From assembly GCA_964578885.1 (NCBI GenBank), contig CAZOEO010000001.1, positions 222,110 to 286,109 on the forward strand: 64,000 nt of DNA, read 5' to 3'. Each line of letters opens with the position of its first letter. The stretch's first letter is position 1. Shown here piece by piece: positions 17,093-36,355 of the stretch. The translations under genes were made by a program, and so were the position numbers. The stretch comes from an uncultured Candidatus Competibacteraceae bacterium. Lineage in GTDB: Bacteria > Bacteroidota > Bacteroidia > CAIKAF01. The notes beneath the pieces were generated by a model that did no database searches, had not been told where the DNA came from, and was given only the letters and a program-made list of their open reading frames with translations.

Positions 17093-17120
17093 GGCAGGGT
17101 ATGTCCGTACCCTGTCTGTC
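17093..17120 (+). terminator. rho-independent-like hairpin (GGCAGGGTA-tgtccg-TACCCTGTC) after the rimK operon
   Basis: 9-bp stem with one G-U pair, 24 nt after the stop, followed by a T-rich stretch. Confidence 0.5.
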
Positions 17121-17345
17121 TTCCAATGTATAATATTTCAATATAATAAAAATTATTTTTTGTTTATAACAATGTATTGTTGATATCTAGTTATTTGTTA
17201 TTCAATACTTTAATTGTTTCATACAATGGTTTTGAGTAAATAATGAGGTAAAATATTTCATTTTTGTTGTTTGGGGTGAAACAATTTATATCTTCGTTAT
17301 GGTTAAAACTAATAACCATTAAGAACCCCATTTAGAACCCATCGT
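17121..17345 (+). promoter_or_regulatory. extremely AT-rich upstream region of the beta-helix/giant-repeat locus (putative strong promoter/UP region)
   Basis: Roughly 80% A+T over about 225 bp, with several TAnnTTTG-like Bacteroidota -7 elements (for example TATTTTTTG, TTTTTGTTG) immediately upstream of the first locus gene. Confidence 0.4.
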
Positions 17346-18434
17346 ATGAAGAACATATTTACCTCGCTAGGCTTGGTCTTGGGGTTAATGTTATCACCTA
17401 CATTGGCGCTCAATGCAACGATATGGAGGGTTAATAATACTCCGGGAATTAATGCGTCTTTTTCAGATTTGACCACAGCGATTTCCGGTGCATCGGTAGA
17501 TGATACGCTCTATGTGGAAGGAAGTCTTACCTCTTATGGTGCTATTTTACTTAATAAGCGCTTAACTATCATTGGTCCGGGATATCTTTTAGGAGTAAAC
17601 GATACCACCATGGCGTTTCAACAGGCGGCCACTTTATCTTCTTTACGTGTAACCGCTGCCGGATCAACCGTTATGGGGTTGTATATCAACAATACCGCTA
17701 CTACGCCTGTATTTGCGCTTTCCATTGAGGCCAGTAATGTGACCATGCTTAGGAATTATATCCGCAAAGGCTCCAACAGTGCATCAGGCGATGTGATTCA
17801 GATTTCTTCCGGTCTCACTGGAGTTTCTATCGCCCAAAATTTGGTTGAGAATGTTGGGACGTCCCTGTCTTTTACTTTCCGTGGCATCAATTTTCTTGGC
17901 GCTGGTATCAATTGCATTATTTCCAACAACATTATTTTAACAGGCGCTTCAGACTTGAATGGAGGTTCCATGAGTGGGGATGCCCTGGTCTTGTCAGCTG
18001 GGGGAGCTTATCGGGTCAATTATAACACGATACGCGGAAATTGCTCTTTTTTCAACGCCCAGGTTTCTGGAAATATTTTGATTAGGGGACTTATTACAAC
18101 CAGTCCTGCCAGTCCAAATATTATTCAAAATAATTTGTCTAATCAATCACAGTTTGGCACAGCTCAGGGGAATATCGCCTTAGTGGATATGACCACGGGT
18201 GTTTTTGCCATGACGGGTTTGGCAAATGAGGATCGATATTATCGACTTGTCCCGGGTTCGGTAGCCATTTCCGCAGGTCCGAACGGTTCGAACGCAGGCG
18301 CCTATGGTGGTTTTACACCGTATGTAAGGTCCGGAATGCCTCCCATTCCTTCCATTTTTGCGGCTTCTATCCCAGGGGCAGCCAATACGGCAACGGGAGT
18401 GCCTGTAAACCAGAGTTCCATTTCACGCAACTAA
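17346..18434 (+). CDS. secreted parallel beta-helix (PbH1) repeat protein with a C-terminal YFWD-module-like tail; paralog 1 of 4
   Basis: Signal peptide, conserved WRVNN...DTLYVEGS..SYG...GPGY.L..ND(S/T)T N-cap, and repeated I.xN.I PbH1 strands (VSIAQNLVEN, IISNNIILTG). The C-terminus (YYRL.P...G...YGGF.PYVRSGMPPIPSIF...) resembles one module of the giant protein. Confidence 0.55.
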   Translation: MKNIFTSLGLVLGLMLSPTLALNATIWRVNNTPGINASFSDLTTAISGASVDDTLYVEGSLTSYGAILLNKRLTIIGPGYLLGVNDTTMAFQQAATLSSLRVTAAGSTVMGLYINNTATTPVFALSIEASNVTMLRNYIRKGSNSASGDVIQISSGLTGVSIAQNLVENVGTSLSFTFRGINFLGAGINCIISNNIILTGASDLNGGSMSGDALVLSAGGAYRVNYNTIRGNCSFFNAQVSGNILIRGLITTSPASPNIIQNNLSNQSQFGTAQGNIALVDMTTGVFAMTGLANEDRYYRLVPGSVAISAGPNGSNAGAYGGFTPYVRSGMPPIPSIFAASIPGAANTATGVPVNQSSISRN

Positions 18435-18457
18435 ATACAACACAAAAACAAAAAGGT

Positions 18458-19570
18458 ATGAAACACCTCATCCGCTTTTCATTTATGGTGCTTATGCTGA
18501 GCCCATTGGCTGTATTCGCCGGCAAGTGGCGGGTCAATAACCAAACAGGTACCACTGCTAATTTTACGTCTGTAGCTACGGCTGTTGCAAGTGCATCCGT
18601 GTTAAATGGTGATACACTTTATATTGAAGGATCACCTACCTCTTATGGCTCTCTTTCTCTCACATCCAAGAGATTGACCTTTATTGGTCCTGGTTACCTT
18701 CTAACAGACAATGACTCTACTCAGGCTATTATTTATCCTGCCCGTTTCGATCAATTGAGCGTTTCCGGAGCTTCTGCAGATAATTCTGTGTTTTTAGGAT
18801 TGGTTTTCCAAAACACTACAGGTGGTACTACTTTGGTAACATTGGGCTCCAATGGTCTTACTTTTTCCCGTAATTATCTTTTTACCGGAACAAATGGAGG
18901 TAACTCATTTGGATCCGTTGGTATTTCGGTGACATCTGGTTTTAACAACATTACCATCAGCCAGAATTTCATCAATTTACAACTGACTGTAGCTTCTTTT
19001 AGCAATACTGGAATCAGCATTACAGGCACCAATACCAACCTTCTCATATCTAATAATCTAATTTTGGTTGGTCAGATGGATTTAACGTCAACTAATCCAA
19101 GTACCGCCAACGCCATCACCATGTCTAGCACCAGCGGTTCTGCTGTAGTTGCGAATAATGTGTTCAAAGGCAATTTGACCTTATATAATGCTCAGTTGTT
19201 CAGTAACATATGGATTGCTGGTACCTTTACAGTGAATGCTTCTTTCCCCAACGTATTGCAGAATAATATTTCTAACTCCACCCAGTTTGGTTCTACCAAC
19301 GGAAACCAGCAGAACATAACCATGACCAACGTATTTGCTCAAACTGGTTCGGTGGCGTCTTTGGATAAATTCTACACTTTAATTCCATCCACTTCTCCTG
19401 CGATTGGAACAGGAGTCGGCGGTAATGATTGCGGTATTTTTGGTGGAACGCTTCGCTATAAATTGAGTGGTTTACCTCCTTTTCCTGCGATTTGGTCTGC
19501 CACAGTTCCTCCAACAGGTTCAAGTGGGTCTAACCTGAACGTGAATGTGCGTGCACGTGCGCACAATTAA
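18458..19570 (+). CDS. secreted parallel beta-helix (PbH1) repeat protein; paralog 2 of 4
   Basis: Same architecture as 17346..18434. C-terminal tail FGGTLRYKLSGLPPFPAIWSATVPPTGSSGSNLNVNVRARAHN. Confidence 0.55.
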   Translation: MKHLIRFSFMVLMLSPLAVFAGKWRVNNQTGTTANFTSVATAVASASVLNGDTLYIEGSPTSYGSLSLTSKRLTFIGPGYLLTDNDSTQAIIYPARFDQLSVSGASADNSVFLGLVFQNTTGGTTLVTLGSNGLTFSRNYLFTGTNGGNSFGSVGISVTSGFNNITISQNFINLQLTVASFSNTGISITGTNTNLLISNNLILVGQMDLTSTNPSTANAITMSSTSGSAVVANNVFKGNLTLYNAQLFSNIWIAGTFTVNASFPNVLQNNISNSTQFGSTNGNQQNITMTNVFAQTGSVASLDKFYTLIPSTSPAIGTGVGGNDCGIFGGTLRYKLSGLPPFPAIWSATVPPTGSSGSNLNVNVRARAHN

Positions 19571-19623
19571 GCTGAGATTGTTTCATCCTTTTTAGTTCAA
19601 GAACCCGAATTTAAGCTATCGGT

Positions 19624-22600
19624 ATGCCCAAAAATACGCGACATTACCTGTGTGCGGCCGTGCTCATTGTGCTCATGAGTCTTATACCCATGGGTGCAGT
19701 ATTTGCGCAGGTCTCCAACGTGCAGGCTGGCGAATATTTTTGGGATACCGATCCGGGTTTTGGTGCGGGTACGGCTATTTCTGGCATTACTCCGGGCGTT
19801 AGTTTGTCACAAACATTCGCTCCTCCTTTGTCTTCTTTGACACCGGGCATGCACACTCTCTTTGTCCGTTTTAGAAATGCAAATGGGCATTGGAGTACAA
19901 CCCACCGTTGGCCAGTTTATATATTAAGTTTACCATCCACCGTTCCTAACATCTCTCAAGGCGAATATTTTTGGGATATAGACCCCGGATATGGTTCAGG
20001 AACGCCTATTAGTTCATTTTCTGGCGCGTCTTCTGTTTCTTCTTCCATTGCAGTTCCGCTCTCCGGTCTTACTCCCGGGCTCCATGTGTTGTATCTTCGT
20101 TCGCGTGCCAATCCGGGGAATTGGGGCCAAACACATGGTTTTCCTGTATTGGTGCTCCCCACACCATCGCTCCCTAATGTATCTCGTTTAGAATATTTCT
20201 GGGACAACGACCCCGGATTTGGCAATGGGACATTGGTTCCAGGTTTTACAGCTGGAACCGCACCACAAACCATTTCGGCGTTGGTGCTCTCTTCTCTTTC
20301 TCCGGGTATTCATACCCTAATGGTACGGGGAAAAGACAGTAATGGGAAGTGGAGCCAAACCTATGTTTATCCGGTGGTGATTTCCAATATTCCTTCCACA
20401 GCCCTGCATGTCAATCAATTAGAATATTTTTGGAATACAGATCCCGGCGTGGGAAATGGAACTGCTGTAACGTCCTTTACCAGTGCGGTTTCTGTTACTC
20501 CTTCTGTTGCTGTTCCCCTATCTGGTTTATCTGCGGGTATGAATACCTTATTTTTCCGCGGAAGAAACGCCAATGGGCAATGGGGGATTACGCATCGTTT
20601 CCCCGTTTTTGTGGCTACCGCAGCCAGTTCAACCACCGTAAATGCGTATGAGTATTTTTGGGATACCGATCCTGGATTCGGAGCCGGCACCTCTGTGACT
20701 TCTTTTTCTGCATCGGGTTCAGTGAATCAAAGTTTTGCCATTTCATTGAATGGTCTTTCCCCAGGTTTGCATACCCTTTATTTGCGTGCGAAAGGCCCTG
20801 GAGCCCTTTACGGTCAGACCCATGCTTATCCGGTATTGGTACAACCGGATGCGACGCTACCTACCGTTACCCGGATAGAATATTTTTGGGATACCGATCC
20901 CGGATTTGGATTAGGAACATTAATTCCTGGATTTTCCGCTGGTTTAACACCTTCGGTAGCTGCTTCTGCTTTAAATCTTACGTCCCTTACCTCAGGTATT
21001 CACACACTGAATGTAAGAAGCCGAGATGCGAATGGCCGTTGGAGTCAGACTTACACTTATCCTGTGGTGGTTACAAACTTTAATGTTTCGCCATCTCAAA
21101 TTACTGCCATTGAATCTTTTTGGGATGTAGATCCCGGCATGGGAAATGGAACTGCGGTGACTGGTTTTACGCCTGGAACCACGGTATCTGCCATTTCTTC
21201 GTTGCCGCTTAATGGCCTGACTTCTGGCATGCATACTTTGTTTTTCCGCGGAAGGAATGCAGATGGGCACTGGGGGATTACCCAGCGTTTTCCTGTTTTT
21301 GTAACAAGTATACCTGCCACAAGTCCCGTAGCTTCGTTTGAGTATTTTTGGAATACGGATCCCGGTTTTGGTGCGGCGACTCAGGTGTCTGGTTTTTCTC
21401 CAGCCAATGCGGTGAATCATACTTTTGCCATTCCATTAACGGGACTTTCTGCCGGCATCCAAACTTTACATATTCGTTCGCGCAATAGTGCTGGAACTCC
21501 CGGACAGACCTATGCATTTCCGGTGTATGTAACGCCTGTGTTAACCCTTCCACAACTCACCAAGCTTGAGTATTGGTGGGATACGGATCCCGGATATGGA
21601 TCTGCGACGCCAGTTCCCGGATTTGCGGCTGGGGTTACACCATCTGTTACCGCTGCGTTGCCTTTGGGAAATCTTTCCCCCGGTATTCACACTTTAGGGG
21701 TAAGGGGTCAGGATCAACAAGGACGTTGGAGTGTGGTGCACACTTACAATGTGGTGATTTCCAATGTAAGTTCTCCAGCATCTAACATTACACAGGTTGA
21801 ATATTTTTGGGATGTGGATCCTGGATTTGGCGCAGGTACACCCATGACAGGTTTTTCTGCCGGAACCAGTGTGCAGGCGGTATCAGCCATTCCATTAGGG
21901 ACTTTGGTTCCGGGGACGCATGTGTTGTTTACACGGGCAAAAAGTGCAGATGGAGATTGGAGTATCACCCATCGTTTTTCTGTGTTTGTGTCTTCTCCAC
22001 CTCCTCCGCCAACTCCCGGACTTGCACAAATTGAATATTTCTGGGATACAGATCCTGGATACGGTAATGGTGTTTCTGTTCCTGTGGCGCCGAATGCGTC
22101 GGTGAACACCAACCTTGTTGTTTCTTTAAGTGGTTTAACTCCAGGCGTGCATGTACTTGGGATGCGGGCTCAGGATACCAATGGTGTTTGGGGGATAACA
22201 CATCCTCATGCGGTCTATGTGCTTCCCGATTTGGCAGTGACCAATGTATCCCGTTTAGAATATTTTTGGGATACAGATCCTGGATTTGGTGCTGGAACCG
22301 CTTTACCTGGTTTGGTTGCTGCGCCTACCGCTTCTGTGGTACATGGTATATCGTTATCTGCTTTAACTCAGGGCATTCATTCTCTCACAATAAGGGGGCA
22401 AAGTTCCAGCGGAAAGTGGAGTGTTTCTCACACTTATGGTGTTGTGGTTCTTCCTCCTTCATCTGTTGCGTCAAATATTGTTGCGGCAGAATATTTTTGG
22501 GATATAGATCCCGGATTTGGTGCCGGTACGCCTGTCTCTGGAATTACAGCAGGTCCGTCCATTGCTCCAGTTTTGAGTTTGCCTTTAGGTTCGCTCACTC

Positions 22601-25600
22601 CCGGCATGCATACTTTATTTGTACGTGGCAGAGATGCCAATGGCGGTTGGAGTACAACCCATCGTTTCCCAGTATTTGTACAGCAATTAAGTACCTTAAG
22701 TCCTGTTACGCAGTTTGAATATTTTTGGGATACCGATCCCGGGTATGGTCTGGGAACGGTTATTTCTGGCTTCCCTCCCGCCAACAATGTGGGACAAAAC
22801 TTAGTGGTACCTGTATCTGGCTTACAGCCTGGCGTGCATGTGTTGCATTTTAGAGCGACGAATCAGGACGCGTTAACAGGGCAGACTTATGCTTTCCCGG
22901 TTTGGATAACGCCTGCATTCACCCTACCCGATGTAACACGGTTGGAATATTTCTGGGATGCAGATCCCGGGATTGGGCAGGGAACTTCCGTAACGATTTC
23001 TTCTTCGAATGATATAACCGCAGTGGCAGCGCTTCCACTTTCCGGCTTGAATACAGGAATTCACACCCTGGCTGTTCGTGCTCAGGACAATCGTGGGGCA
23101 TGGAGTGTATCCCATACGTACTCAGTGGTTATTTTAGACCTTTCTGGGCTTTCGAATATTACCGCGGTAGAATATTTTTGGGATACAGATCCAGGATATG
23201 GTTCCGGGACAGCGATTACAGGATTTTCTTCCGGGACAACGGTGCAGGCTGTCGCTTCTGTTGCTTTAGGAAGTTTGGTTCCAGGGCCCCATGTATTTTT
23301 TGTTCGTGCCCGTGATGCCAAAGGAGGATGGAGTACCACGCATCGTTTTTCCGTTTTTGTTTCCAATCCACCGCCACCGCCCGTGCCTGGTTTAGCTCAA
23401 TTGGAGTATTTCTGGGATACCGATCCGGGTTATGGAAATGGCACAGGTGTGGCTTTAGCGCCCAATTCACAATCCAACACGAACATAGCGGTTTCTACTT
23501 CGGGACTCGCGCCTGGTATTCATGTACTTGGTATGCGCGCTCAGGATACCAATGGTGTTTGGGGGATAACCCATCCGCATCCGGTGTACATGTTGCCTGC
23601 CTTTCAATTGTCCGATGTAACGCGCGTAGAATATTTCTGGAATGCGGATCCCGGTTATGGAAACGCCACTGCGCTTTCTGGAATTACCCCATCTGCCTCG
23701 GTTTCTGTTTCTCAGGCGATTTCCATGAGTGGATTGAGTCAGGGATTAAATTATTTGACGGTTCGCTCTCGTGACACACAGGGTAAATGGTCTGTGGCAC
23801 ATACTTATGGAGTGCTTTTAACTAATTTTCCAATAACTCTTCCGGACATTACGTCTGTGGAATATTTTTGGAATACCGATCCCGGGTTTGGTCAGGGAAC
23901 ACCGGTTAGTGGATTTGTGCAGGGGACGCAGATTACACATGCTTTTAATATACCATTGAACAGTTTAAGCAATGGTATTAATACTTTGTTTGTAAGAGGT
24001 CGGAATGCGCTGGGAGAATGGAGTACGACGCATCGTTTCCCTGTTTTGGTAGCAGCTCCTCAGATTTCTGCGCCTGTAAGTCAGTTTGAATATTTCTGGG
24101 ACACCGATCCTGGTTTTGGAAATGGTAGCATTATTAGTGGTTTTACGCCAGGATTATTGGCCAATCAAAATATTGCGGTGTCATTGGGTGCACTGTCACC
24201 TGGAGTACACGTTTTAGGTGTAAGGTCCGCTGACACGTTGAACCAGTGGGGAATAACCCATACTTTTCCAGTGTATGTGACACCTCCGCTCACGTTAGAT
24301 CAGGTTATTCGTGTTGAATATTACTGGGATACGGATCCCGGGTTTGGTGCAGGAAATGCCTTGTCGGGATTCAGTCCGAACACCGAAGTTTCGGCGACGC
24401 AAGCCATTTCTCTTTCCGGTTTAACGCAGGGAATTCACAGTTTGGTGGTTCGTTCCAAGTCTTTAGGGGGACAGTGGAGCGTGTCTCATCAGTTTAGTGT
24501 ATTGGTTACCAATCTTCCGTCTTCACCATATGCCGTAGATGCACTGGAATATTTCTGGAATACGGATCCGGGAATAGGGAATGCTACAGCGGTTGCGGGC
24601 TTCACGGCGGGTACGCAGGTTTCGCATGTCTTTAATATACCAACCAGTGCGTTGAATACGGGTATGAATACCTTGTTTGTGCGGGGGCGGAACAGCAATG
24701 GAGATTGGGGTATTGTGCATCGTTATCCTGTGTTTATTACCAGTATTCAGTCTGCTGCGCCCATTGCATCTTTGGAATATTTCTGGGATAATGATCCGGG
24801 AATAGGCAATGCGACCACGGTGTCTGGATTTAGTTTAGCGGGTAGTGTGAATCAGAACGTAGTGGTGCCTATGGCTTCACTTAGTCCAGGTGTGCATGTT
24901 TTGGGAATTCGTGCGGCAGACTCTACCCAGCTTTGGGGTATGACTCATACATTCCCGGTATATGTCACTCCTGACCTTACGTTGGACAATGTTGCGGCGA
25001 TTGAGTATTTCTGGGATACTGATCCCGGTTATGGAAATGCGACTAGTCTGAGTGGCATTGCCCCGGGCACTACGGTATCTAGTAGCCAGGCGCTGTCTCT
25101 TTCCGCTTTAAATCCGGGAATCCATTCTTTAATGGTTCGCTCTAAATCAGCGACTGGCAAATGGAGTGTGGCACATCAGTGGTCTGTTTTAATTATCAAT
25201 ACGCCTCCCTTACCTTATCAAGTCACTGCCATTGAATATTTCTGGAATACGGATCCTGGTTATGGAAATGGTGTAACGGTGTCCGGTCTCACTCCATCTA
25301 CCAGCGTGAGCCAGGTGTTGCCTATACCCATGACAGGATTAGCGAATGGTATGAATTCTTTGTTCATACGTGCTCAGAACGCCAATGGGGAATGGAGTAC
25401 TACGCATCGATTCCCCGTGTATGTGGTTTCCATTTCACAACCTACTCCTGTTGCCGCTTTTGAGTATTTCTGGGATACGGATCCCGGTTATGGAAACGGG
25501 ACCAATGTTTCAAGTTTTTCTCCCGCTGGAAGCGTCAATCAGAACATTGCCGTTTCGCTTCTTGGCGTAAATCCAGGATTAAAAACGTTATATATACGTA

Positions 25601-28600: not shown

Positions 28601-31600
28601 GTCGTTGGAGTGTGGCGCATTCATACACTATTTTTGTAACGACAGATCCGAATCCGTCCAACATTACACGCATTGAATATTTCTGGAATACGGATCCCGG
28701 TATGGGTAATGGGGTGAATGTTCCTGGCGTAGTGGCCGGATCATTGGTGAATCAGGTCTTCTCTGTGAATTTGTCTGGGTTGTCTCAAGGCGTGAATACC
28801 TTGTTTGTGAGGAGCATGAATGCCAAGGGCAATTATAGTATAACCCACAGGTATCCTGTATTTGTTGGTCAGTCTGGCAATGCGCCCATTAGCAGGTTTG
28901 AATATTTTTGGGATACCGACCCCGGATTTGGCGCAGGCACCCAAGTGACCAGTTTCTTACCAGCGACGAACGTAAATCAGAATATTGCCATTCCATTAAC
29001 CAACCTGAATCCGGGTGTGCGTACCTTATTTGTGCGCAGTGCGGATACCTTGGGGCGTTGGGGCGGCACGTATGCTTATCCGGTGTATTTAGTTCCGGCT
29101 TCCGCCTTGCCACAGGTGAGTCGTTTGGAATATTTTTGGAACACAGATCCCGGATTTGGAAATGCTACCGCCATTGGTGGGCTTGCTGCCTCAGCTCAAG
29201 TGATCGGTACTACAGCTATTTCTTTGTCAGGCCTACCTGTGGGAGTAAATTATTTGAACATTAGAGCGAAGGATGCCGATGGTCGGTGGTCTGCTACCCA
29301 TAATTTCAACGTGGTGGTCGTGCCCATTGGAAATGGAGGAGATGTAACAGCCCTTGAATATTTCTGGGATACTGACCCTGGAAAAGGTAATGCCAATGCC
29401 GTGACCAACTTTACCGCTTCCGCTTCCGTAACACATTCGTTCCCTGTAAGCATGAGTGGTCTGTCTCAGGGATTGCATCTGCTGTATGTGAGAGGTAAAA
29501 ACCAATCCGGAGATTGGGGTATCACGCATCGTTTCCCTGTCTTTGTGGCCGATCCAAACCAAGGTGGCGGTGCGCCCATAACCAGATATGAATATTTCTG
29601 GGATACAGATCCTGGTATGGGGTCGGCTACCCAGGTAACTGGTTTTGCAACAGGTACTTCTACCAATCATTCTTTTAATATTGCATTATCGGGTCTTACC
29701 CCTGGTTTAAGAACCTTGCATGTTCGCCCTGCCGATTCACTTGGACGCTGGGGTATTACCCATGCCTATCCGGTGTATGTGATGCCAGATCCTACTTTGC
29801 CGAACATTACGCGCATGGAATATTTCTGGGATGCAGATCCTGGCATTGGAAACGCTACTGCCATTTCTATTACGCCAGGGCAAACCGCTTCCGGCACGTT
29901 AGCTATTCCATTGAGCAGTTTGGCTACTGGATTGCATACCCTTTCGGTTCGTTCACGCGATGCGCAGGGGCGCTGGTCCGTTACGCACACTTGGTCAGTC
30001 ATTATTACTAACCTTGACGCCTCGCCGCAGCCCATTACAGCAGTTGAATATTTCTGGAATACCGATCCAGGTATGGGCAATGCTACGGCACTTACCTCAT
30101 TTGCCCCGGCTACATCTGTAAGTCCATCTTTCGCTATTCCGGTGGGTAACCTTCCTTCCGGCCTTCAGACCTTATTTATTCGTGCGAAAAACCAATCTGG
30201 CGCATGGAGTATAACCCATCGTTTCCCTGTATTGGTGCAATCTGCGAATGCATTGGCTTCAGCACCTATCCAACGATTCGAATACTTTATCGATACCGAT
30301 CCCGGATATGGAGCAGCTACTCAGGTGTCCACTTTCTCTCCTGCCTCACAGGTGAATCAGAACATTTTGATTCCGCTTTCCGGATTGGCAGAAGGAATCA
30401 GGAACATTGGCATCAGGGCCATGGATACGCTTGGTCGTTGGGGACAAACATACCAGTATCCGGTCTATTTACTCAATACGGCCACCAGCCAGGTAGCTGC
30501 GCTCGAGTATTACTGGGATACCGATCCAGGTTTTGGTTCAGCAACGGCCATTCCTGTTTCTCCATCTACAGAAGTCTCTACCACGCAAGCTTTACCATTG
30601 TCCAACCTCAATACAGGAATGCATAACCTTACAGTAAGGGCGAAAAGCAATACGGGTCGTTGGAGTGTTTCTCACCATTACCCTGTATTTGTTATCGACC
30701 AATCTCTTTTACCGGATACCGTTACCCAGGTTGAATATTTCTTTGACGTAGATCCCGGTATGGGGCAGGCATCCAGCATTTCCGGAATCACGCCGGGCAT
30801 CAACGTAGACGGTGTATTCCCCATTCCTTTAAACAATCTGGCTCAGGGATTACATCAGATATTTATCCGTGCGAAAAACCGCAGCGGGCATTGGGGTATC
30901 ACACACCGCTTCCCGGTGTATATTCTCAATCAGCAGGTTACACCTGAGGTGGTGGCTGCGGAATACTTTATTGATACGGATCCGGGATTTGGTGCAGCTA
31001 CTCCAGTACCTGCGTTTGCCAGTGCTACGGATGTAAATCTGAACCTAGCCGTTTCTCTTTCCAACCTGAGTCAGGGCATTCACCGGCTCTATGTCCGTAC
31101 CCAAGATAACAGTGGTGTTTGGGGTCATACCTTCAATGAGATTTTCACTTTGATGAATATTCCAGCTACGCCTGTACCGCTTGCCAAGGGAGAATATTTC
31201 TGGGATGTAGACCCAGGCTTTAACAATGGTACCAACATTCCTGGCGTTACATCGGCCGTACTCAACAGCTTATCTTTTACCATTCCAGCGCCACCCGCGG
31301 CTCCGGGTGTACATACGCTTTACACACGTTATCAGGACACTTTAGGTCGTTGGGGACATACCCATGCAGAAATGATGATTGTGTATCCGGGTCCAGATAC
31401 TGTGCGTAACCTTGTGGGTCTTGAGTACTTTATTGATACAGATCCCGGTTTAGGTCAGGCCACCTTTGTTCCGTTTACCACGCCCTCTCCGCAGGTAACC
31501 GAAGTCGTGAATCTCCCGATCTGTGGATTGGCTTCCGGTAACTACACTTTATATGTTCGGGTAAAAGATGAAGATGGACGCTATGGCCAGACCTATGCCC

Positions 31601-33279
31601 ATGCGATGTCGGTGACCAATAATGGTGGCAGTCTGCCTATTTCTTTAAGTCAGAATGGCCCCATCTGTACTGGCGACACGCTTTCTCTCCTTGTTACACA
31701 CGCCACATTCTCCAGTCCGGCCATTACCTACACTTGGACTGGTCCTAATGGATTTAACCAGACGGTATCTAATCCTTCACTGTTCAATGCCCAAGCCTCG
31801 GCATCCGGTATGTACACAGTGACTGTTACGAATCCGCTGATTAACTGTTCTGGTGTAGATTCCATCATGGTCTTAGTGAGTTCAGGTGCACCTGCACCGG
31901 TGGTACTTTCTCCGGATACCATTTGTAATGGCGCCAATGTATTGCTTACTGCCTTTAACACAAACACTTCACAGTTCTACTGGTGGGATGCAGCTTCCGG
32001 AGGAAATATTATTGACTCCGGCTCTACTTTCGTGTCGCAGGCTTTTGTAAACAACACGATGGCATATGAGCAGAAATTATTCTATGTTTCTGCCAACGAC
32101 ACTGTTGGTTGCAGCGGAAGCAGAACCACCGCCACAGTGCTTGTACGACCTTTGCCTGGTTCCGCCCTGAATCAGAATGTGGTTTATCAGGCCCAGGGAA
32201 CTACCCTGCCCGTGAATGCCAATAATTGTATTATTGTAAGTCCTGACCAATGGGTGCAATTTGTGGATGGAAATAACGCATTGATTGCTTCGGTAAAAGA
32301 GCCTTCCGGAAGTTCAAACCTTGGTGCCACGCAAGCTACAGCCACTTTAGTAGAAACCAATGTGGCCGTATTAAACGGAAAACCTTTCCTTCCTAAAGTA
32401 TTTACCATTACGCCGGCTAGTCAGCCTGGTCCCAATGATACGGTTTCCGTTCGCTTGTATTTTACCCAGGAAGATTTCGACTCTTTGAATTTTATGGCCG
32501 GAGGTGGTTTCACCATGAACGAGCTTCAGGTGCGTAAGTATTCTGCTAATCTTACTGGGTCGCAAGTGCTGAACCCTGCGGCTTCCGGCTTTGCACCTGT
32601 GATGATAGATACAAGCAAGATTACGGTTCTCGATTCAATGGTCACCGGATTGTCCAATGTATTTGCCTTGCAGTTCCCTCTAACCAGCTTCTCTACTTTC
32701 TTTATCGAATTCAACGACAATCCAACGCCATTGCCGGTTACATTAACCGAGTGGGAGGCCAATTGCGATCCAAAAGGTATTCGTTTGGACTGGACTACCC
32801 AATCTGAATTAAATAACCAAGCCTTTTTTGTGGATCGGAGTTTAGATGGAGAAGAGTGGTCTCGTATTGCCACTATTCCAGGCGCTGGAAACTCTAATGT
32901 GGTGAAACACTATTCTCATGTAGATGGATTCTCTTATCCAGGTTGGGTTTACTATCGCTTGACCCAACAGGATTTCGACGGAACCACTGAAGTATTCTAT
33001 CCGGTGTCTGCTTTCTGTGACGGTGCAGAAACAGGTGTATGGGCCAATGCATCTCCCAACCCAACTTTTGGCAAATCCACCATTTCTCATGGGTTTGGAA
33101 AGGCTGGTGTAAGGTGGGAATTAATGGACGTAAGTGGGCGGATTCTACAACGTGGGGTAGATCATAACGAAGGATTTAACATCGACTTGAACGCTGCCGC
33201 TCCCGGTACTTATGTACTCCGCCTTGAGGGTGTTTTGGTACAGGAAACCATTTCATTACGAATCATAAAAGCGCAATAA
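19624..33279 (+). CDS. giant (4551 aa) tandem-repeat cell-surface protein with a T9SS C-terminal sorting domain
   Basis: Single uninterrupted ORF. Signal peptide, then about 42 copies of a roughly 95-aa module (EYFWDTDPGxGxGT...PLSGLxxGxHTLxVRxR...GxWSxTHRFPVxV). After that come about 500 aa of Ig-like domains (ICxG...YxWxGPNG...GxYTVTVT...C motifs). It ends in a typical roughly 80-aa T9SS sorting domain (...RWELMDVSGRILQRG...GTYVLRLEG...). Confidence 0.85.
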   Translation: MPKNTRHYLCAAVLIVLMSLIPMGAVFAQVSNVQAGEYFWDTDPGFGAGTAISGITPGVSLSQTFAPPLSSLTPGMHTLFVRFRNANGHWSTTHRWPVYILSLPSTVPNISQGEYFWDIDPGYGSGTPISSFSGASSVSSSIAVPLSGLTPGLHVLYLRSRANPGNWGQTHGFPVLVLPTPSLPNVSRLEYFWDNDPGFGNGTLVPGFTAGTAPQTISALVLSSLSPGIHTLMVRGKDSNGKWSQTYVYPVVISNIPSTALHVNQLEYFWNTDPGVGNGTAVTSFTSAVSVTPSVAVPLSGLSAGMNTLFFRGRNANGQWGITHRFPVFVATAASSTTVNAYEYFWDTDPGFGAGTSVTSFSASGSVNQSFAISLNGLSPGLHTLYLRAKGPGALYGQTHAYPVLVQPDATLPTVTRIEYFWDTDPGFGLGTLIPGFSAGLTPSVAASALNLTSLTSGIHTLNVRSRDANGRWSQTYTYPVVVTNFNVSPSQITAIESFWDVDPGMGNGTAVTGFTPGTTVSAISSLPLNGLTSGMHTLFFRGRNADGHWGITQRFPVFVTSIPATSPVASFEYFWNTDPGFGAATQVSGFSPANAVNHTFAIPLTGLSAGIQTLHIRSRNSAGTPGQTYAFPVYVTPVLTLPQLTKLEYWWDTDPGYGSATPVPGFAAGVTPSVTAALPLGNLSPGIHTLGVRGQDQQGRWSVVHTYNVVISNVSSPASNITQVEYFWDVDPGFGAGTPMTGFSAGTSVQAVSAIPLGTLVPGTHVLFTRAKSADGDWSITHRFSVFVSSPPPPPTPGLAQIEYFWDTDPGYGNGVSVPVAPNASVNTNLVVSLSGLTPGVHVLGMRAQDTNGVWGITHPHAVYVLPDLAVTNVSRLEYFWDTDPGFGAGTALPGLVAAPTASVVHGISLSALTQGIHSLTIRGQSSSGKWSVSHTYGVVVLPPSSVASNIVAAEYFWDIDPGFGAGTPVSGITAGPSIAPVLSLPLGSLTPGMHTLFVRGRDANGGWSTTHRFPVFVQQLSTLSPVTQFEYFWDTDPGYGLGTVISGFPPANNVGQNLVVPVSGLQPGVHVLHFRATNQDALTGQTYAFPVWITPAFTLPDVTRLEYFWDADPGIGQGTSVTISSSNDITAVAALPLSGLNTGIHTLAVRAQDNRGAWSVSHTYSVVILDLSGLSNITAVEYFWDTDPGYGSGTAITGFSSGTTVQAVASVALGSLVPGPHVFFVRARDAKGGWSTTHRFSVFVSNPPPPPVPGLAQLEYFWDTDPGYGNGTGVALAPNSQSNTNIAVSTSGLAPGIHVLGMRAQDTNGVWGITHPHPVYMLPAFQLSDVTRVEYFWNADPGYGNATALSGITPSASVSVSQAISMSGLSQGLNYLTVRSRDTQGKWSVAHTYGVLLTNFPITLPDITSVEYFWNTDPGFGQGTPVSGFVQGTQITHAFNIPLNSLSNGINTLFVRGRNALGEWSTTHRFPVLVAAPQISAPVSQFEYFWDTDPGFGNGSIISGFTPGLLANQNIAVSLGALSPGVHVLGVRSADTLNQWGITHTFPVYVTPPLTLDQVIRVEYYWDTDPGFGAGNALSGFSPNTEVSATQAISLSGLTQGIHSLVVRSKSLGGQWSVSHQFSVLVTNLPSSPYAVDALEYFWNTDPGIGNATAVAGFTAGTQVSHVFNIPTSALNTGMNTLFVRGRNSNGDWGIVHRYPVFITSIQSAAPIASLEYFWDNDPGIGNATTVSGFSLAGSVNQNVVVPMASLSPGVHVLGIRAADSTQLWGMTHTFPVYVTPDLTLDNVAAIEYFWDTDPGYGNATSLSGIAPGTTVSSSQALSLSALNPGIHSLMVRSKSATGKWSVAHQWSVLIINTPPLPYQVTAIEYFWNTDPGYGNGVTVSGLTPSTSVSQVLPIPMTGLANGMNSLFIRAQNANGEWSTTHRFPVYVVSISQPTPVAAFEYFWDTDPGYGNGTNVSSFSPAGSVNQNIAVSLLGVNPGLKTLYIRSKDSLNVWGQTYAFPVYITPALTLPQVSQIEYFWDVDPGYGNATSLSGFTVGTEVTVPSAISISQLQPGLRTLTVRAKSSDGTWSVAHSFQALISNVAPTLSPITAIEYFWDTDPGIGNASPITAFVSSDTVNTQVAVPVGSLPVGSHVLFIRAKNAQGHWGLTHRWSISITAPPIPLPAAISSFEYFWNTDPGLGNATTVSSFTQGIDVNHSFAVPLSGLNAGLNTLVLRAIDTTGKVGHSYPMPIFIVPSQTVSNLTQVEYFWDTDPGFGNGTALTGFLPAAEISVNHGISLASVTPGIHTLTVRGKDQLGRWSVSHTYSVIITNNLNPAPDVTAIEYFWNTDPGIGNGTNVPVTSPGIQVTQVFNIPLNALNAGTNTLFIRSKNQQGAWSITHRFPVFITAPVALAPVQRLEYFWDTDPGYGNGVAVTGFSAGQSINQNVAISLASVNPGLRVLHFRAQDTTGKWGHTYPYPVYITPNLALSNVNRVEYFWDVDPGYGNGTAISGISPNTEISTSQALPLSGLTPGIHTLTVRARSNEGRWSVAHTYAVIVSNMPAQLENITAIEYFWNTDPGMGNATSFTGFSPATQISQNMVIPVSGLNQGMNTLFIRSKSLSGQWSITHRYPVYVGGLSTAAPITAFEYFWNTDPGYGNGAPVTGFTLANDVNHSFLVPLSGVNTGLNTLHIRAIDSTTRYGQTYAFPVYMVPNPTLPNLTRLEYYWDTDPGFGNGTAITGYTPGNEVTAAAALTLSSLNPGIHTLAVRGRDAQGRWSVTHTFGVVVSNFNLPAPNITAIEYFWDTDPGIGNGTAVTSFTPSDTVSTQVAIPLTIAAGPHVLFIRAKNALGHWSITHRFAVNVTLPPVPPPAPIARFEYFWDTDPGLGNATSVTGFANAEQVNYSFAVPMTGLNAGLHTLVLRAIDSTNKVGHSYPMPVFIVPPTNLVNIDRLEYFWDNDPGYGNGSAVVGFVPGDTVTAIQAIPMQNLTPGFHTLTVRSRTSDGRWSVAHSYTIFVTTDPNPSNITRIEYFWNTDPGMGNGVNVPGVVAGSLVNQVFSVNLSGLSQGVNTLFVRSMNAKGNYSITHRYPVFVGQSGNAPISRFEYFWDTDPGFGAGTQVTSFLPATNVNQNIAIPLTNLNPGVRTLFVRSADTLGRWGGTYAYPVYLVPASALPQVSRLEYFWNTDPGFGNATAIGGLAASAQVIGTTAISLSGLPVGVNYLNIRAKDADGRWSATHNFNVVVVPIGNGGDVTALEYFWDTDPGKGNANAVTNFTASASVTHSFPVSMSGLSQGLHLLYVRGKNQSGDWGITHRFPVFVADPNQGGGAPITRYEYFWDTDPGMGSATQVTGFATGTSTNHSFNIALSGLTPGLRTLHVRPADSLGRWGITHAYPVYVMPDPTLPNITRMEYFWDADPGIGNATAISITPGQTASGTLAIPLSSLATGLHTLSVRSRDAQGRWSVTHTWSVIITNLDASPQPITAVEYFWNTDPGMGNATALTSFAPATSVSPSFAIPVGNLPSGLQTLFIRAKNQSGAWSITHRFPVLVQSANALASAPIQRFEYFIDTDPGYGAATQVSTFSPASQVNQNILIPLSGLAEGIRNIGIRAMDTLGRWGQTYQYPVYLLNTATSQVAALEYYWDTDPGFGSATAIPVSPSTEVSTTQALPLSNLNTGMHNLTVRAKSNTGRWSVSHHYPVFVIDQSLLPDTVTQVEYFFDVDPGMGQASSISGITPGINVDGVFPIPLNNLAQGLHQIFIRAKNRSGHWGITHRFPVYILNQQVTPEVVAAEYFIDTDPGFGAATPVPAFASATDVNLNLAVSLSNLSQGIHRLYVRTQDNSGVWGHTFNEIFTLMNIPATPVPLAKGEYFWDVDPGFNNGTNIPGVTSAVLNSLSFTIPAPPAAPGVHTLYTRYQDTLGRWGHTHAEMMIVYPGPDTVRNLVGLEYFIDTDPGLGQATFVPFTTPSPQVTEVVNLPICGLASGNYTLYVRVKDEDGRYGQTYAHAMSVTNNGGSLPISLSQNGPICTGDTLSLLVTHATFSSPAITYTWTGPNGFNQTVSNPSLFNAQASASGMYTVTVTNPLINCSGVDSIMVLVSSGAPAPVVLSPDTICNGANVLLTAFNTNTSQFYWWDAASGGNIIDSGSTFVSQAFVNNTMAYEQKLFYVSANDTVGCSGSRTTATVLVRPLPGSALNQNVVYQAQGTTLPVNANNCIIVSPDQWVQFVDGNNALIASVKEPSGSSNLGATQATATLVETNVAVLNGKPFLPKVFTITPASQPGPNDTVSVRLYFTQEDFDSLNFMAGGGFTMNELQVRKYSANLTGSQVLNPAASGFAPVMIDTSKITVLDSMVTGLSNVFALQFPLTSFSTFFIEFNDNPTPLPVTLTEWEANCDPKGIRLDWTTQSELNNQAFFVDRSLDGEEWSRIATIPGAGNSNVVKHYSHVDGFSYPGWVYYRLTQQDFDGTTEVFYPVSAFCDGAETGVWANASPNPTFGKSTISHGFGKAGVRWELMDVSGRILQRGVDHNEGFNIDLNAAAPGTYVLRLEGVLVQETISLRIIKAQ
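19720..31620 (+). repeat. intragenic tandem repeat array with a roughly 285-bp period (about 42 copies; about 14 super-repeats of about 855 bp, each made of three diverged subtypes)
   Basis: A roughly 25-nt core (gaatatttctgggatacngatccngg) recurs about every 285 bp. The encoded modules cycle HWSTTHRFPVFV to WGQTYAFPVYVTP to RWSVxHTYxVVISN. Confidence 0.85.
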
Positions 33280-33371
33280 CCATGGAAGTGAATCACTTTT
33301 CCGCTAAAAATATCGGATCTTCTGAGAAGAGCCGCTTTTTCAAACTTCAATTATCACGTCAAACAACAGTT

Positions 33372-34484
33372 ATGAAACACGTTTTCCTTTTGCTGTGCGT
33401 AGCAGGCTCATTGGCTACCGCACACGGCGCCATCCGGCGCGTGAACAACAGGCCGGGCACCGGTGCTGCTCATGCAGACATTACCTCTGCCATCACCGCG
33501 GCCGTTGCGGTGGTAGATACCATCATCGTGGAAGGCTCGCCCACGGCATATGCGGCTTTTAACCTGAACAAGCAACTGGTTATCCTGGGACCTGGTTATT
33601 TCCTGACCGACAACGACTCCACTCAGGCTTATACCCAGCCCGCCACCATCAACTCGGCTTCCACCATTTCCACGGCAGGTTGTACTGTAAGTGGTTTGGT
33701 TTTTAGCTACAACACTGGAGGTAGCACTACACCCATGTTGCAAATCAGTGCGAACAATGTGACCATCGCCAGAAATTACTTTTATGATACTTGGACTTCC
33801 ACCGGAAACTCCAACTGTATTCAGGTGGCTTCCGGTATCACAGGTGTCACCATCGCTCAGAACTTTATCCGTTGCGAGCAAACCAACCAATCTGGCTGGG
33901 GACTCATTTATATCCCTGGTACCGGTAACACCAACCTGGTTATTACTAACAATATTCTGGTTGCTGGTTCCGCCAACACCACGGAGGCCACTCACCGTAA
34001 TGCCATTTGGGTGACCAATACCGCCAACCAGGGAGGTATCCTTTTTGCCAATAACCTCATCTTAGGTAACGTTCAGTCTTACAATTGCACTTTCGTGAAT
34101 AACATCTGGGGGCGTGGCACATTCATTAACACGCCTGTAGGTAATGTAGGTCGCAACAACGTTTTATCCGGAACGCAGTTCACCGGTCAGATTGTTTATA
34201 CAGATCCTACGGCTGTAAACTTGAACAACCAGGCCATGGCCGGAACCATGTTCGCTCAAACAGGTGGTAACGGTGCCATTGACAAGTTTTGGAAACTGGC
34301 AGGTGCCTCTTCTGCCCTCACCGCAGGTATCAATTCCAGCGAAGCCGGCCCATTTGGTGGTCCAGCCAGCTACATATTATCCGGCCTGCCTGCTATTCCC
34401 GTTGTATGGTTCGGTTCTGTACCTACTTCTGGAAACACAAGCTCTACATTGAGCGTCACTTTCCGCGCACGTACCATCAATTAA
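33372..34484 (+). CDS. secreted parallel beta-helix (PbH1) repeat protein; paralog 3 of 4
   Basis: Start chosen at the signal-peptide Met (MKHVFLLLCVAGSLATAHG); the ORF opens at 33282, 2 nt after the giant gene's stop. PbH1 strands VTIARNYFYD, VTIAQNFIRC and VITNNILVAG. Tail FGGPASYILSGLPAIPVVWFGSVPTSGNTSSTLSVTFRARTIN. Confidence 0.55.
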   Translation: MKHVFLLLCVAGSLATAHGAIRRVNNRPGTGAAHADITSAITAAVAVVDTIIVEGSPTAYAAFNLNKQLVILGPGYFLTDNDSTQAYTQPATINSASTISTAGCTVSGLVFSYNTGGSTTPMLQISANNVTIARNYFYDTWTSTGNSNCIQVASGITGVTIAQNFIRCEQTNQSGWGLIYIPGTGNTNLVITNNILVAGSANTTEATHRNAIWVTNTANQGGILFANNLILGNVQSYNCTFVNNIWGRGTFINTPVGNVGRNNVLSGTQFTGQIVYTDPTAVNLNNQAMAGTMFAQTGGNGAIDKFWKLAGASSALTAGINSSEAGPFGGPASYILSGLPAIPVVWFGSVPTSGNTSSTLSVTFRARTIN

Positions 34485-34522
34485 TCTGAAACTTAGACGA
34501 ACGTCTCATAATATTACAGATC

Positions 34523-35719
34523 ATGAAAAATATGTCAAATCCTTCGTTCCGGTTAGGTCGCCTAGTATTCGGCCTCTCCATTAGCTTGCTCGTGTTGGCA
34601 GCTAATCACCTGCAAGCGGCCAGATGGCGCGTAAATAATCAGCTCACAGCACAAACAGCTGGTGCTGGTTCAGTACAAACCTTCACCACCTTGGCGGCCG
34701 CACAAACCGCAGCTACCAATGGTGATACTATCTATGTGGAAGGCTCTCCTATCGCCTATTCCGGCGTTACGTGTACAAAACTTCTCACTTGGATTGGACC
34801 CGGTTATTTTTTAACCTTGAACGACTCCACCCAGGCCATGCCCAATGATGCGTGGATTAACACTGCCATCGCCTTCAATGCGGGTTCGGCTGGGTCTACT
34901 TTCATGGGATTCCGTATCGAATACAACTCCACATCTGCAGCGCAGGTAGCCGTTTCGGTGAACAACATCGTGATTGCACGGAACTACTTCCGGAATATTA
35001 CGAGTACAGCGCCCACCAATGGACATTGTATCAACATTGTTTCTGGGGTTACGGGTACCACCATCATTCAGAATTTCTTTGAGCTCCCAACGAGTACCAC
35101 TATTGTCAGAAGAGCCATCAACATGGCGGGAACTTCGCCCAACACCTTGATTGCCTCTAACATTATTCTTTGCGGAGCTTTCTCTGATATGACCACCGCT
35201 GGTGCTACCACCACCACTGTAACGGCAAATACTGGGGAAGCCATAAGAATGGTGTCCACCTCTAGCGCGACCATTCAAAATAATTTTATCAATGGTCACT
35301 GCTTTATTGCCAACACTGACTTTAATCACAACGTGATGCCAAGAGGTCTTGTCGTGAGTGCCGGTGGTACCAACACCACTACCTACAATACGCACCAATT
35401 GGCTGCCGGTACAGGTGGTATGATCATCACTACGGCTGCCGGCGACAACAACCTGCATTCACAGTCTTTTGCATCCAACGCCATCATTACCCCACCAGCA
35501 GGTGCCACCGTGTATCAGGATCGTTATTACAAATATACCAATCCTCTTCCTGCTTCGCTCACCGGAAACAACACCCGTCGCGGTCACTTTGGTGGCCCTA
35601 TGCCTTACCGCTTATCCGGTCTGCCACCTGTCCCCGCCGTTTGGTCTGCCATCGTTCCTGTGTCCGGTCTCACCAACCAAAACTTGAACGTAACCGTACG
35701 CGTGCGGTCGATCAACTGA
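34523..35719 (+). CDS. secreted parallel beta-helix (PbH1) repeat protein; paralog 4 of 4
   Basis: Signal peptide. PbH1 strands IVIARNYFRN, TIIQNFFEL, LIASNIILCG and TIQNNFINGH. Tail FGGPMPYRLSGLPPVPAVWSAIVPVSGLTNQNLNVTVRVRSIN. Confidence 0.55.
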   Translation: MKNMSNPSFRLGRLVFGLSISLLVLAANHLQAARWRVNNQLTAQTAGAGSVQTFTTLAAAQTAATNGDTIYVEGSPIAYSGVTCTKLLTWIGPGYFLTLNDSTQAMPNDAWINTAIAFNAGSAGSTFMGFRIEYNSTSAAQVAVSVNNIVIARNYFRNITSTAPTNGHCINIVSGVTGTTIIQNFFELPTSTTIVRRAINMAGTSPNTLIASNIILCGAFSDMTTAGATTTTVTANTGEAIRMVSTSSATIQNNFINGHCFIANTDFNHNVMPRGLVVSAGGTNTTTYNTHQLAAGTGGMIITTAAGDNNLHSQSFASNAIITPPAGATVYQDRYYKYTNPLPASLTGNNTRRGHFGGPMPYRLSGLPPVPAVWSAIVPVSGLTNQNLNVTVRVRSIN

Positions 35720-35738
35720 TTTTTTTAAATCTCCGCAG

Positions 35739-35775
35739 AAACCGGCTTCCCGACGTGAGGAGCCGGTTTTTTTTT
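35739..35775 (+). terminator. rho-independent terminator (CCGGCTTCC...GGAGCCGG followed by T9)
   Basis: Hairpin plus a run of nine T, 20 nt after the stop of the last locus gene. Confidence 0.7.
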
Positions 35776-35955
35776 GCGCCTGCCTGTCCCATCTGCCGAT
35801 ACATCTTACTTCAGTTTTTCTTTAAGTCGCAGTGAGGTACAAGGGCCAGGCACCGCGTGTTCCGCTAAAAGTCCTCGCCCCATTTATTTCTTTTTTCCTT
35901 TTGCCAAACATCCCAATGGGGCTCCGGGCTACCGCTGCACCCGCTGGCGCGGAAC

Positions 35956-36355
35956 TCCCGACCGAAATGATCTTTCGCCCGAAACTTCAGGAATTCTGAT
36001 GGAATTAAATTTTCCTGCTGTCGTTCGAACCGATTTTAATCGTTTATATCCGTTTAATCTCCGGATAATTTAAGGTTCTGGGCGTAACTTGTCCTCGGGG
36101 AGGGGAGGGTGCAACCCTGGGTTCCGACCGAAATGATCTTTCGCCCGAAACTTCAGGAATTCTGATGGAATCAACTTTTCCTGCTGTCGTTCGAACCGAT
36201 TTTAATCGTTTATATCCGTTTAATCTCCGGATAATTTAAGGTTCTGGGCGTAACTTGTCCTCGGGGAGGGGAGGGTGCAACCCTGGGTTCCGACCGAAAT
36301 GATCTTTCGCCCGAAACTTCGGGAATTCTGATGGAATTAATTTTTCCTGCTTTTC
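35956..36355. repeat. non-coding direct tandem repeat, 166-bp unit, about 2.4 near-identical copies
   Basis: The unit beginning CCGACCGAAATGATCTTTCGCCCGAAACTTCAGGAATTCTGATGG... recurs at 35958, 36124 and 36290 with only 3-4 substitutions. Each unit has an internal GGGTGCAACCC palindrome and a GGGGAGGGGAGGG tract. Confidence 0.85.

Follow-up and report, generated by a model that had tools for sequence, protein, structure and literature searches.

What are four secreted beta-helix proteins doing on either side of a gene for a giant repeat protein? The question is raised by five genes at 17346-35719 of the 64,000-nucleotide stretch of contig CAZOEO010000001.1 analysed here (the window; all positions count from its first letter). 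The initial annotation of this DNA had described them as a same-strand locus with two beta-helix paralogs on each side of the giant gene, and the open reading frames (ORFs) confirm this:

17346-18434, plus strand: P1, a secreted beta-helix protein of 362 aa, without a Pfam or NCBIfam match
18458-19570, plus strand: P2, a secreted beta-helix protein of 370 aa, the paralog chosen for AlphaFold2
19624-33279, plus strand: the predicted giant type IX secretion system (T9SS) cargo, 4551 aa, with a signal peptide, 52 modules, an Ig_7 domain, additional domains towards the C-terminus and a C-terminal sorting domain (CTD) of type A
33372-34484, plus strand: P3, a secreted beta-helix protein whose 370 aa start at the signal-peptide Met, in an ORF that opens at 33282
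34523-35719, plus strand: P4, a secreted beta-helix protein of 398 aa

The lengths given earlier for P1, P2 and P4 hold, while the 371 aa given for P3 come down to 370. In what follows, P stands for a beta-helix protein and M for a module-array protein. The answer that we favour, with our confidence evenly balanced for and against it, is that the locus represents, in expanded form, a conserved two-component system of Bacteroidota in which P heads would join an M stalk to give a two-part surface assembly.

The evidence that carries this answer furthest is the company that P genes keep. We surveyed 108 loci around P homologs, 28 from genomes (scanned with a 15-sequence alignment as query) and 80 from metagenomes, using hidden Markov models (HMMs) of the P family and of the modules of the window's giant protein. 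Among the 110 P-gene runs in these loci, each of one to four genes in tandem, 86 have a module gene as their immediate same-strand successor; in another six the run closes with a P-module fusion, in 13 the contig ends first, and the remaining five are exceptions that include frameshifted or truncated P genes. An adjoining or fused module protein is therefore found in 92 of the 97 informative runs (95%). In about 80 of the 86 partners the first module begins 27-104 residues into the stop-to-stop ORF, directly past the signal peptide. The reverse test, on loci found by module similarity, gave P genes directly upstream in 4/4 loci and for 6/6 module genes. In general, then, the module gene comes after one to four P genes, and the pair is present in contigs of Hymenobacter, Chitinophagaceae, Flavobacteriales and Bacteroidales as well as in many metagenomes. 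The gene neighbourhoods strongly support a P-M pairing that is conserved and widespread in Bacteroidota and amounts to an almost obligatory gene pair. The initial annotation had named, as grounds for giving up its idea, homologous beta-helix paralogs that are never linked elsewhere to YFWD-repeat proteins; the survey decisively shows the opposite, in that annotation's favour. In the synteny check that it proposed, the arrangement of two P genes, the giant gene and two more P genes is confined to this organism and close strains. A scaffold from the ENA metagenomes has the identical gene order and a protein (P0108) near-identical to P4.

In several loci the two components are a single protein. 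At least four fusion architectures occur, all of them running from helix to tail, linker, module and anchor, which is also the order of the genes:

P0121: P, tail, one module and Dockerin_1
P0138-140 and a 725-aa protein of L020: P, tail, four modules and Dockerin_1
L022, L023 and L025: a fusion of 571-575 aa with an extra segment between tail and module
P0247: P, tail, module, another domain and dockerin-like repeats

The linker that follows the tail in the fusions resembles the linkers between modules. A weak match to PF13229 (23.3 bits against a cut-off of 25.9) is found in a related fusion protein.

The separately encoded M partners range from 2 to 52 modules. Beyond the modules, some are 3100-aa Hymenobacter proteins and others carry cadherin-like, Laminin_G or PKD domains, and Pfam recognises the modules of other partners as GbpA_D3 or not at all. 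Their C-termini are mostly T9SS sorting domains (type A, or CHU_C with a PorP/SprF neighbour), with dockerin-like repeats in some. In the smallest partners, of 413-418 aa, nothing but four modules lies between the signal peptide and the T9SS CTD, and they look like a bare stalk plus anchor. One module protein (L115, 4001-7572) has CHU_C, the type B sorting domain, at its end; next to it comes a PorP_SprF gene and after that a second P-M cassette, so the P-M system occurs with both types of T9SS sorting domain. In partners of the Bacteroidales type (L004, L010, L013, L040, L042) and in the P0247 fusion, the modules are followed by a domain of about 230 aa (…VDW[IV]L[LV]E[TL]R…HRNHLG…), which Pfam does not recognise, and then by dockerin-like repeats.

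Regulators stand next to a minority of the cassettes: AraC-type proteins with a membrane N-terminal half in 16 loci (e.g. L004, 17625-18839) and LuxR-type response regulators in 12 (e.g. L019, 9099-9872), while a sensor kinase containing Y_Y_Y lies near the cassette of L114. Neither type of regulator adjoins the locus in the window. A conserved third gene was considered and rejected, as these regulators are only occasional and none is universal. Three cassette contigs bear the labels of Proteobacterial metagenome-assembled genomes (Competibacteraceae for L001, Janthinobacterium lividum for L012 and Comamonadaceae for L023), which are probably binning errors and not true occurrences. The window itself looks like Bacteroidota DNA, judged by its T9SS content and by the taxonomy of its homologs.

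The giant protein of the window begins with a hydrophobic signal, with cleavage between …AVFA and QVSN. Its main features are as follows:

19732-31632, plus strand: the array of 52 modules of 75-78 aa, EYFWDTDPG.G.GT…LSGL.PG.HTL.VR.RD..G.WS.TH.FPV.V
31894-32151, plus strand: Ig_7 ('Ig-like domain CHU_C associated'), residues 4091-4176, PF19081, E 9e-14
33052-33270, plus strand: the T9SS type A sorting domain, residues 4477-4549, TIGR04183 with 33.8 bits (cut-off 23) and PF18962 with 30.6 bits (cut-off 27)

The 42 modules counted initially thus become 52. They share a mean pairwise identity of 42%, which rises to 50% at lags of 3, 6, 9 and 12 modules as compared to 39% at other lags, and even the most similar pair is just 71% identical. 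This three-module super-period, together with the low identity of the top pair, shows that the array is old and diverged and was not recently amplified. AlphaFold2, run on the first three modules with 17 aligned three-module units, predicted small beta-sandwich domains with a predicted local distance difference test (pLDDT) score of 88, and Foldseek matched the array to tandem stalks of immunoglobulin (Ig)-like or fibronectin type III-like domains, with SGBP-B of Bacteroides at the top and, besides it, the extender region of an adhesin, SiiE and GhpA of Aureispira. At the sequence level, the modules have no relatives of solved structure, and Pfam offers weak partial matches to Y_Y_Y, Ig_J and WxLIP_HBD. 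The matches to Y_Y_Y (PF07495) sum to 146 bits and three stretches pass alone, the best covering positions 35-55 of the 65 in the model; they indicate a probable Ig-like fold and not clear family membership.

From its signal peptide and sorting domain, the giant protein is a predicted T9SS type A cargo. No head domain could be recognised N-terminal to its modules, the only other matches above the Pfam gathering cut-off being Ig_7 and the CTD, and the mature N-terminus offers merely 6-8 residues before the first EYFWD, like any inter-module linker. The giant protein is therefore a T9SS-exported, stalk-type fibre without a recognisable distal head.

Could the neighbouring P proteins supply what the stalk lacks? 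P1-P4 are paralogs with 34-40% identity over their full length. An alignment confirms the earlier description of a shared signal peptide, N-cap (WRVNN / DT[LI]Y[VI]EGS / GPGY..ND.TQA) and Asn-ladder repeats of PbH1 type in all four. Their composition is unusual in that charged residues make up just 6-8%, and Ser, Thr, Asn and Gly together 40-46%. None has a Pfam or NCBIfam match at E <= 1, a T9SS CTD included, and the 38-aa tail with which each of them ends is below the ~75 aa of an Ig-like CTD. For P2, AlphaFold2 (with a 59-sequence alignment) predicted a right-handed parallel beta-helix with a mean pLDDT of 86.7 and a predicted template modelling score of 0.84. The confidence is high through residue 340 (pLDDT 85-93) and falls to 49-65 for residues 341-370. 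Foldseek assigned the model to the pectate-lyase fold, led by Pel9A (E 1e-5), then rhamnogalacturonan (RG) lyase, CE8 esterases and tailspikes, with a probability of 1.00 for Pel9A, RG lyase and CE8. By its predicted fold, P2 belongs to the pectin-lyase-like right-handed beta-helix superfamily. The matches are at fold level only, with a template modelling (TM)-score of ~0.4, 9-14% identity and E values of 1e-5 to 1e-3; among sequence relatives of solved structure there is one short match, the 'parallel beta-helix repeat protein' 9rx2_A (E 2.5e-4, ~90 residues).

The P family is large. A word-indexed search with P2 returned 479 homologs, nearly all named 'hypothetical protein' and belonging by taxonomy to Bacteroidota, and a full HMM scan found 7750 representative clusters at E <= 1e-3, of which 2118 (clustered at 50% identity) reach E <= 1e-30. 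Among the 150 best HMM matches listed, nearly all are 316-404 aa long and align to the end of the profile. The closest homolog of P2 in the genome collection (L001, 8385-9473; 47% identity) is interrupted by either a frameshift or a stop codon and is among the few P genes with no module gene after them; it is probably a decaying copy.

The resemblance of P2 to polysaccharide lyases, pectin methylesterases and tailspike depolymerases raises the possibility that P acts on glycans enzymatically, as a lyase, hydrolase or esterase, M being a partner or scaffold like a carbohydrate-binding module. On this view both would work on one polysaccharide without forming a stable complex, and the fusions would be ordinary modular carbohydrate-active enzymes. 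The identity of the array's best structural match, a surface glycan-binding protein, fits this explanation, as does the Dockerin_1 of the fusions, which cellulosomal enzymes also carry. We nevertheless regard it as unlikely. Conserved catalytic acidic or basic residues, or Ca ligands, were not found in the helix groove in comparisons of 59-114 family members: the only invariant or near-invariant columns of the helix body (residues 100-290) are G114, N199, N200, N234, N250, I251, N270 and N283, while the conserved charged residues R25, D52, K71 and D303 sit in the caps. The structural similarity to enzymes is at the level of fold only, and this explanation leaves open why the C-terminal tail is the most conserved part of P and co-varies with the modules. 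Since residues of catalytic type are not conserved in the groove, a binding role of P appears more likely than catalysis. Apart from the tail, one further segment stands out: a loop following the first rungs (L..ND.TQA, P2 residues 81-90, window 18698-18727, with equivalents in P1, P3 and P4) is strongly conserved and is modelled by AlphaFold2 with lowered confidence (block mean 66); it could serve for ligand binding or as a further site of contact.

What is the role of the tail then? Over 114 members of the P family the most conserved block is the tail motif Y.LSG.P.IPAI, with a mean column conservation of 0.82. The C-cap motifs and the terminal …KAKSHN at 0.68 come next, whereas the helix body lies at 0.2-0.5. 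The tails of the window are:

19454-19567, plus strand: tail of P2, 38 aa, Y.LSGLPP.PAIW…LNVNVRARAHN
18318-18431, plus strand: equivalent tail of P1
34368-34481, plus strand: equivalent tail of P3
35603-35716, plus strand: equivalent tail of P4

The terminal strand of P1 (…GVPVNQSSISRN) is the most divergent of the four. In the 108 loci and the window the tail motif is confined to ORFs of the P family (115/115). Across 53 P-M pairs the identity matrix of the tails correlates with that of the partner modules (r 0.42, Mantel p <= 0.0005), as compared to r 0.13 between the tail and its own helix body; the bootstrap difference is 0.28, with a 95% interval of 0.10-0.44. The N-cap behaves similarly to the tail in its correlation with partner modules (r 0.37). 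In some homologs (P0080 and P0248) the C-cap and the tail are set apart by an inserted segment of ~110-130 aa with many Cys, Trp and Tyr residues, which shows that the tail is separable from the helix. Being conserved, of low confidence in the monomer model and co-varying with the product of the neighbouring gene, the tail looks like an interface element.

The initial annotation had come to the tail along another path, proposing that the last ~70 residues of each P protein are one degenerate copy of the giant protein's module. In its mechanistic form, this means that P ends in a truncated or degenerate module, an incomplete Ig-like unit that docks on the array, or co-assembles with it, by beta-strand complementation. 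There is a likeness to be explained. All tail/module alignments share one register, in which the tail's VP.SG....L.V.VRAR..N falls on the module's PLSGL.PG.HTL.VR.R..N, and the weak, gap-free match of the last 24-45 tail residues to module positions ~5-51 recurs in this register, with family-wide profiles as well. With profiles from the window only (four tails, 52 modules), hhalign gave a score of 17.4 over 24 columns, which 1/150 shuffles reached (p ~0.007), a marginal result. The best BLASTP hit of tail to module has E 0.005 and several pairs lie at E 0.005-0.03 with one common offset, the same as in hhalign. MAFFT twice drew the terminal strand of the tail onto the HTL.VR.R strand, once on the tail columns and once on a downstream module. 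A tail read in this way would miss the last strand of a module, and in the monomer model its confidence is low; in the fusions it takes the place of the end of a preceding module and is followed by an inter-module-like linker.

The likeness does not extend to the 70 residues originally claimed, for which the hhalign probability is 0.5-5%: 5% over 23-24 columns for the four tails against the 52 modules, and 0.5% with 124 family tails. The family-level score is reached by 21% of column-shuffled module alignments and, for 114 tails against 309 modules from many loci, by 9% of shuffles. The profile-profile comparison that the initial annotation had itself proposed therefore falls within the shuffle null (p 0.21 and 0.09) and speaks against it; the significance is lost with broader profiles, whereas true homology usually gains. 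The LSGL-to-LSGL and aromatic-pair matches on which the alignment had been built are ~20 residues out of register with the match of the terminal strand. The aromatic pair and Gly-rich loop, presented as parts of the module, belong to P2 residues 296-340, a stretch modelled with confidence (pLDDT 85-93) as part of the helix C-cap. The family consensus of that region is D..Y.L..GSPAIGAG..G.DCG.FGG, and we take its L..GSPAIGAG…G motif, as well as the N-cap, to be typical of beta-helix proteins. Natural fusions have a complete tail, then a linker, then a complete module; the mature N-terminus of M, with its 6-8 residues before the first EYFWD, has no spare strand to offer; and blastn, run as a check for gene conversion, found no similarity between tail and module DNA beyond 14-nt words. 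The claim that the tail is a degenerate module was thus examined with hhalign at three profile depths with shuffles, BLASTP and blastn, and we reject it as unproven. What is left is a 24-column resemblance, a short likeness of two amphipathic, basic beta-strands, for which homology is not demonstrated, and docking of a half-module by strand complementation is in our view very unlikely. Of the single functional unit originally suggested, the linkage of P with the repeat protein has strong support from adjacency, fusions and co-variation, while the degenerate module on which the suggestion was premised is unsupported.

We return to the two-part assembly of P heads and M stalk. M is a secreted protein whose mature N-terminus is an array of ~76-aa Ig-like modules and whose C-terminus is a localisation signal, usually a T9SS CTD. 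P is a secreted beta-helix protein of ~350 aa without a sorting domain, ending in the conserved 38-aa tail. In the window the giant gene encodes M, and P1-P4 would be four alternative or additional P subunits. All five proteins would reach the periplasm via Sec, after which the T9SS would export M through its CTD, the 52 modules forming a long stalk with its N-terminus away from the cell. P would join the module array by its tail, perhaps also by the ND.TQA loop, and would serve as the head or heads of the fibre, a binding surface rather than an enzyme. Lacking such a signal for export, P would need either to accompany M on its way or to be captured by it.

A more specific form of this mechanism, which we put forward only tentatively, is that the tail is a dedicated docking element and that heads lacking a sorting domain hitch-hike on a T9SS cargo. 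For the T9SS such a hitch-hiker, or 'split adhesin', would be a first, with a cohesin/dockerin-like logic in thousands of Bacteroidota lineages, and the 52-module fibre with four heads would be its extreme case. If P and M assemble as proposed, this would explain how stalk-only T9SS fibres acquire a functional tip, reveal a route to the surface for proteins without a sorting domain and provide a compact tail/module pair usable for surface display. Read conservatively, the analysis gives a testable annotation to thousands of 'hypothetical proteins' and corrects the earlier claim of homology.

A number of points weigh against the two-part assembly and should be set beside it. That P and M touch, which module or modules are contacted and that the two are co-exported is what we infer from the data above. 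The correlation of the tail is no stronger with any one of modules 1 to 4 than with the others, which leaves the docking site undefined; an early and crude hint of module 1 as the preferred site vanished with HMM-based alignments. Paralogs from the same locus have no extra conservation specific to the tail, only a general rise in identity. The alternative that tail, N-cap and modules simply follow the species tree, while the helix body reflects old paralog types, could account for the co-variation. If the tail were a portable tag it might be expected on other head proteins; this was considered and rejected, as neither the 108 loci nor the rest of the window showed it on any. At the C-terminus of several partners there are dockerin-like repeats and no T9SS CTD, so co-export by the T9SS is not the general rule, and the literature search found no precedent for hitch-hiking on the T9SS. 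Finally, P3 and P4 are placed after the module gene, an atypical order.

The last explanation, to which we assign a very low probability, is that P assists the module array from within the periplasm, as a chaperone, a capping protein or a factor for export and assembly, similar in role, not in fold, to the PorP/SprF-type partners beside some giant T9SS cargos and absent from the final surface structure: the Sec signal of P without a sorting domain, its strict adjacency to a gene whose N-terminal modules enter the periplasm first and the PorP_SprF protein beside the module protein of one related locus are in keeping with it, but the repeated fusion of P to the N-terminus of the array argues for a permanent 1:1 association, and one to four diverged paralogs per locus with highly variable helix surfaces suit interchangeable heads better than a housekeeping chaperone.

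The layout of the five genes of the window is operon-like. The gaps from P1 through P4 are, in order, 23, 53, 92 and 38 nt, and the locus is bounded by two features, both of which the initial annotation had noticed and both of which we find:

17120-17345, plus strand: AT-rich stretch 5' of P1, a likely promoter region, with a GC content of 23.5% as compared to 46.7% for the window
35734-35778, plus strand: intrinsic-terminator-like hairpin with nine U, just 3' of P4, closing the locus

The hairpin has a minimum free energy of -22.1 kcal/mol (z = -2.74), and 1/200 shuffles is as stable. General scans for sigma-70 promoters and for terminators gave sites no more numerous than in shuffles, Bacteroidota promoters being outside the scope of the scan. 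From the sequence layout a single transcription unit for the five genes is plausible, and P1-P4 would then be co-transcribed with the giant gene. The surroundings are housekeeping genes unrelated to the locus: upstream RimK and an AstE/AspA-type deacylase, and downstream, in convergent orientation, LspA, a DksA/TraR-type protein and isoleucyl-tRNA synthetase. The ORF of P3 opens 2 nt past the stop of the giant gene and 30 codons precede its signal-peptide Met (33282-33371); gene callers on metagenomes chose the longer version, with 400 aa. The terminator and lspA are separated by 750 bp of non-coding DNA, and in it lies a tandem repeat (35958-36351) of 2.4 copies of a 166-bp unit at 97% identity, which has no Rfam match; an Rfam scan of the whole window returned zero RNA families.

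How does the P-M pair compare with known systems? The initial annotation knew of no described system with this architecture, and our literature search likewise found none for the P-M pairing; neither P nor the module family has a Pfam or NCBIfam model specific to it. With pectate-lyase-fold beta-helix proteins (PL9 Pel9A, PL6, CE8, phage tailspikes) P2 has its fold in common, but P lacks their conserved catalytic groove residues and its tail is specific to the P family. A similar logic is that of the cohesin-dockerin system, in which, as in P-M, a scaffold of repeated beta-sandwich domains is accompanied by several proteins that have the fold of a carbohydrate-active enzyme and share a short conserved C-terminal segment. 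Cohesins have ~150 aa, whereas the P-M modules have 76 aa; the P tail, of 38 aa and with two short strands predicted, is without the Ca-binding repeats of dockerins. Searches of Pfam and NCBIfam gave no match to Dockerin_1 or EF-hand on P tails and none to cohesin on the modules, and a true Dockerin_1, where present, is at the C-terminus of the M part and not of P. The role imagined for the P tail fits the scheme of donor-strand pili (chaperone-usher and the type V pili of Bacteroidota), the tail being a short C-terminal strand, unstructured alone, that might complete or add to an Ig-like neighbour. The modules, in contrast, are predicted to be complete (pLDDT 88), without an incomplete Ig fold, M has no N-terminal extension, and none of the usher, lipoprotein or protease context of such pili is present in the locus.

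Hitch-hiker export is known from Tat hitch-hiking and from peroxisomal piggy-back import, where a subunit without a signal is carried by its partner through a machine that handles folded proteins (PMC9251779). The T9SS also transports folded proteins (PMC9251779), which is the likeness here; the difference is that P co-export is purely our proposal, and no T9SS case was found in the literature search.

The closest known counterparts of the giant protein itself are the fibrillar adhesins and giant T9SS cargos such as SprB and RemA of Flavobacterium johnsoniae and the 'grappling hook' GhpA of Aureispira, which are similarly very long, with an Ig-like stalk and a Por_Secre_tail. Foldseek with the module array retrieves adhesin extender regions, SiiE and fragment 6 of GhpA. 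The class of fibrillar adhesins has been defined with Por_Secre_tail counted as an anchor (PMC8286594), and the giant protein has the tandem-repeat stalk and cell anchor that the definition calls for, while the adhesive domain expected in the same protein (PMC8286594) was not found in it. Its stalk thus differs from these adhesins in having no head in cis, the candidate head being encoded by a separate gene present in one to four copies and made up of a beta-helix and a conserved tail. A head may be supplied to the giant protein in trans by P, and the new feature that this locus adds to a fibrillar-adhesin-like T9SS cargo is a separately encoded family of beta-helix partners.

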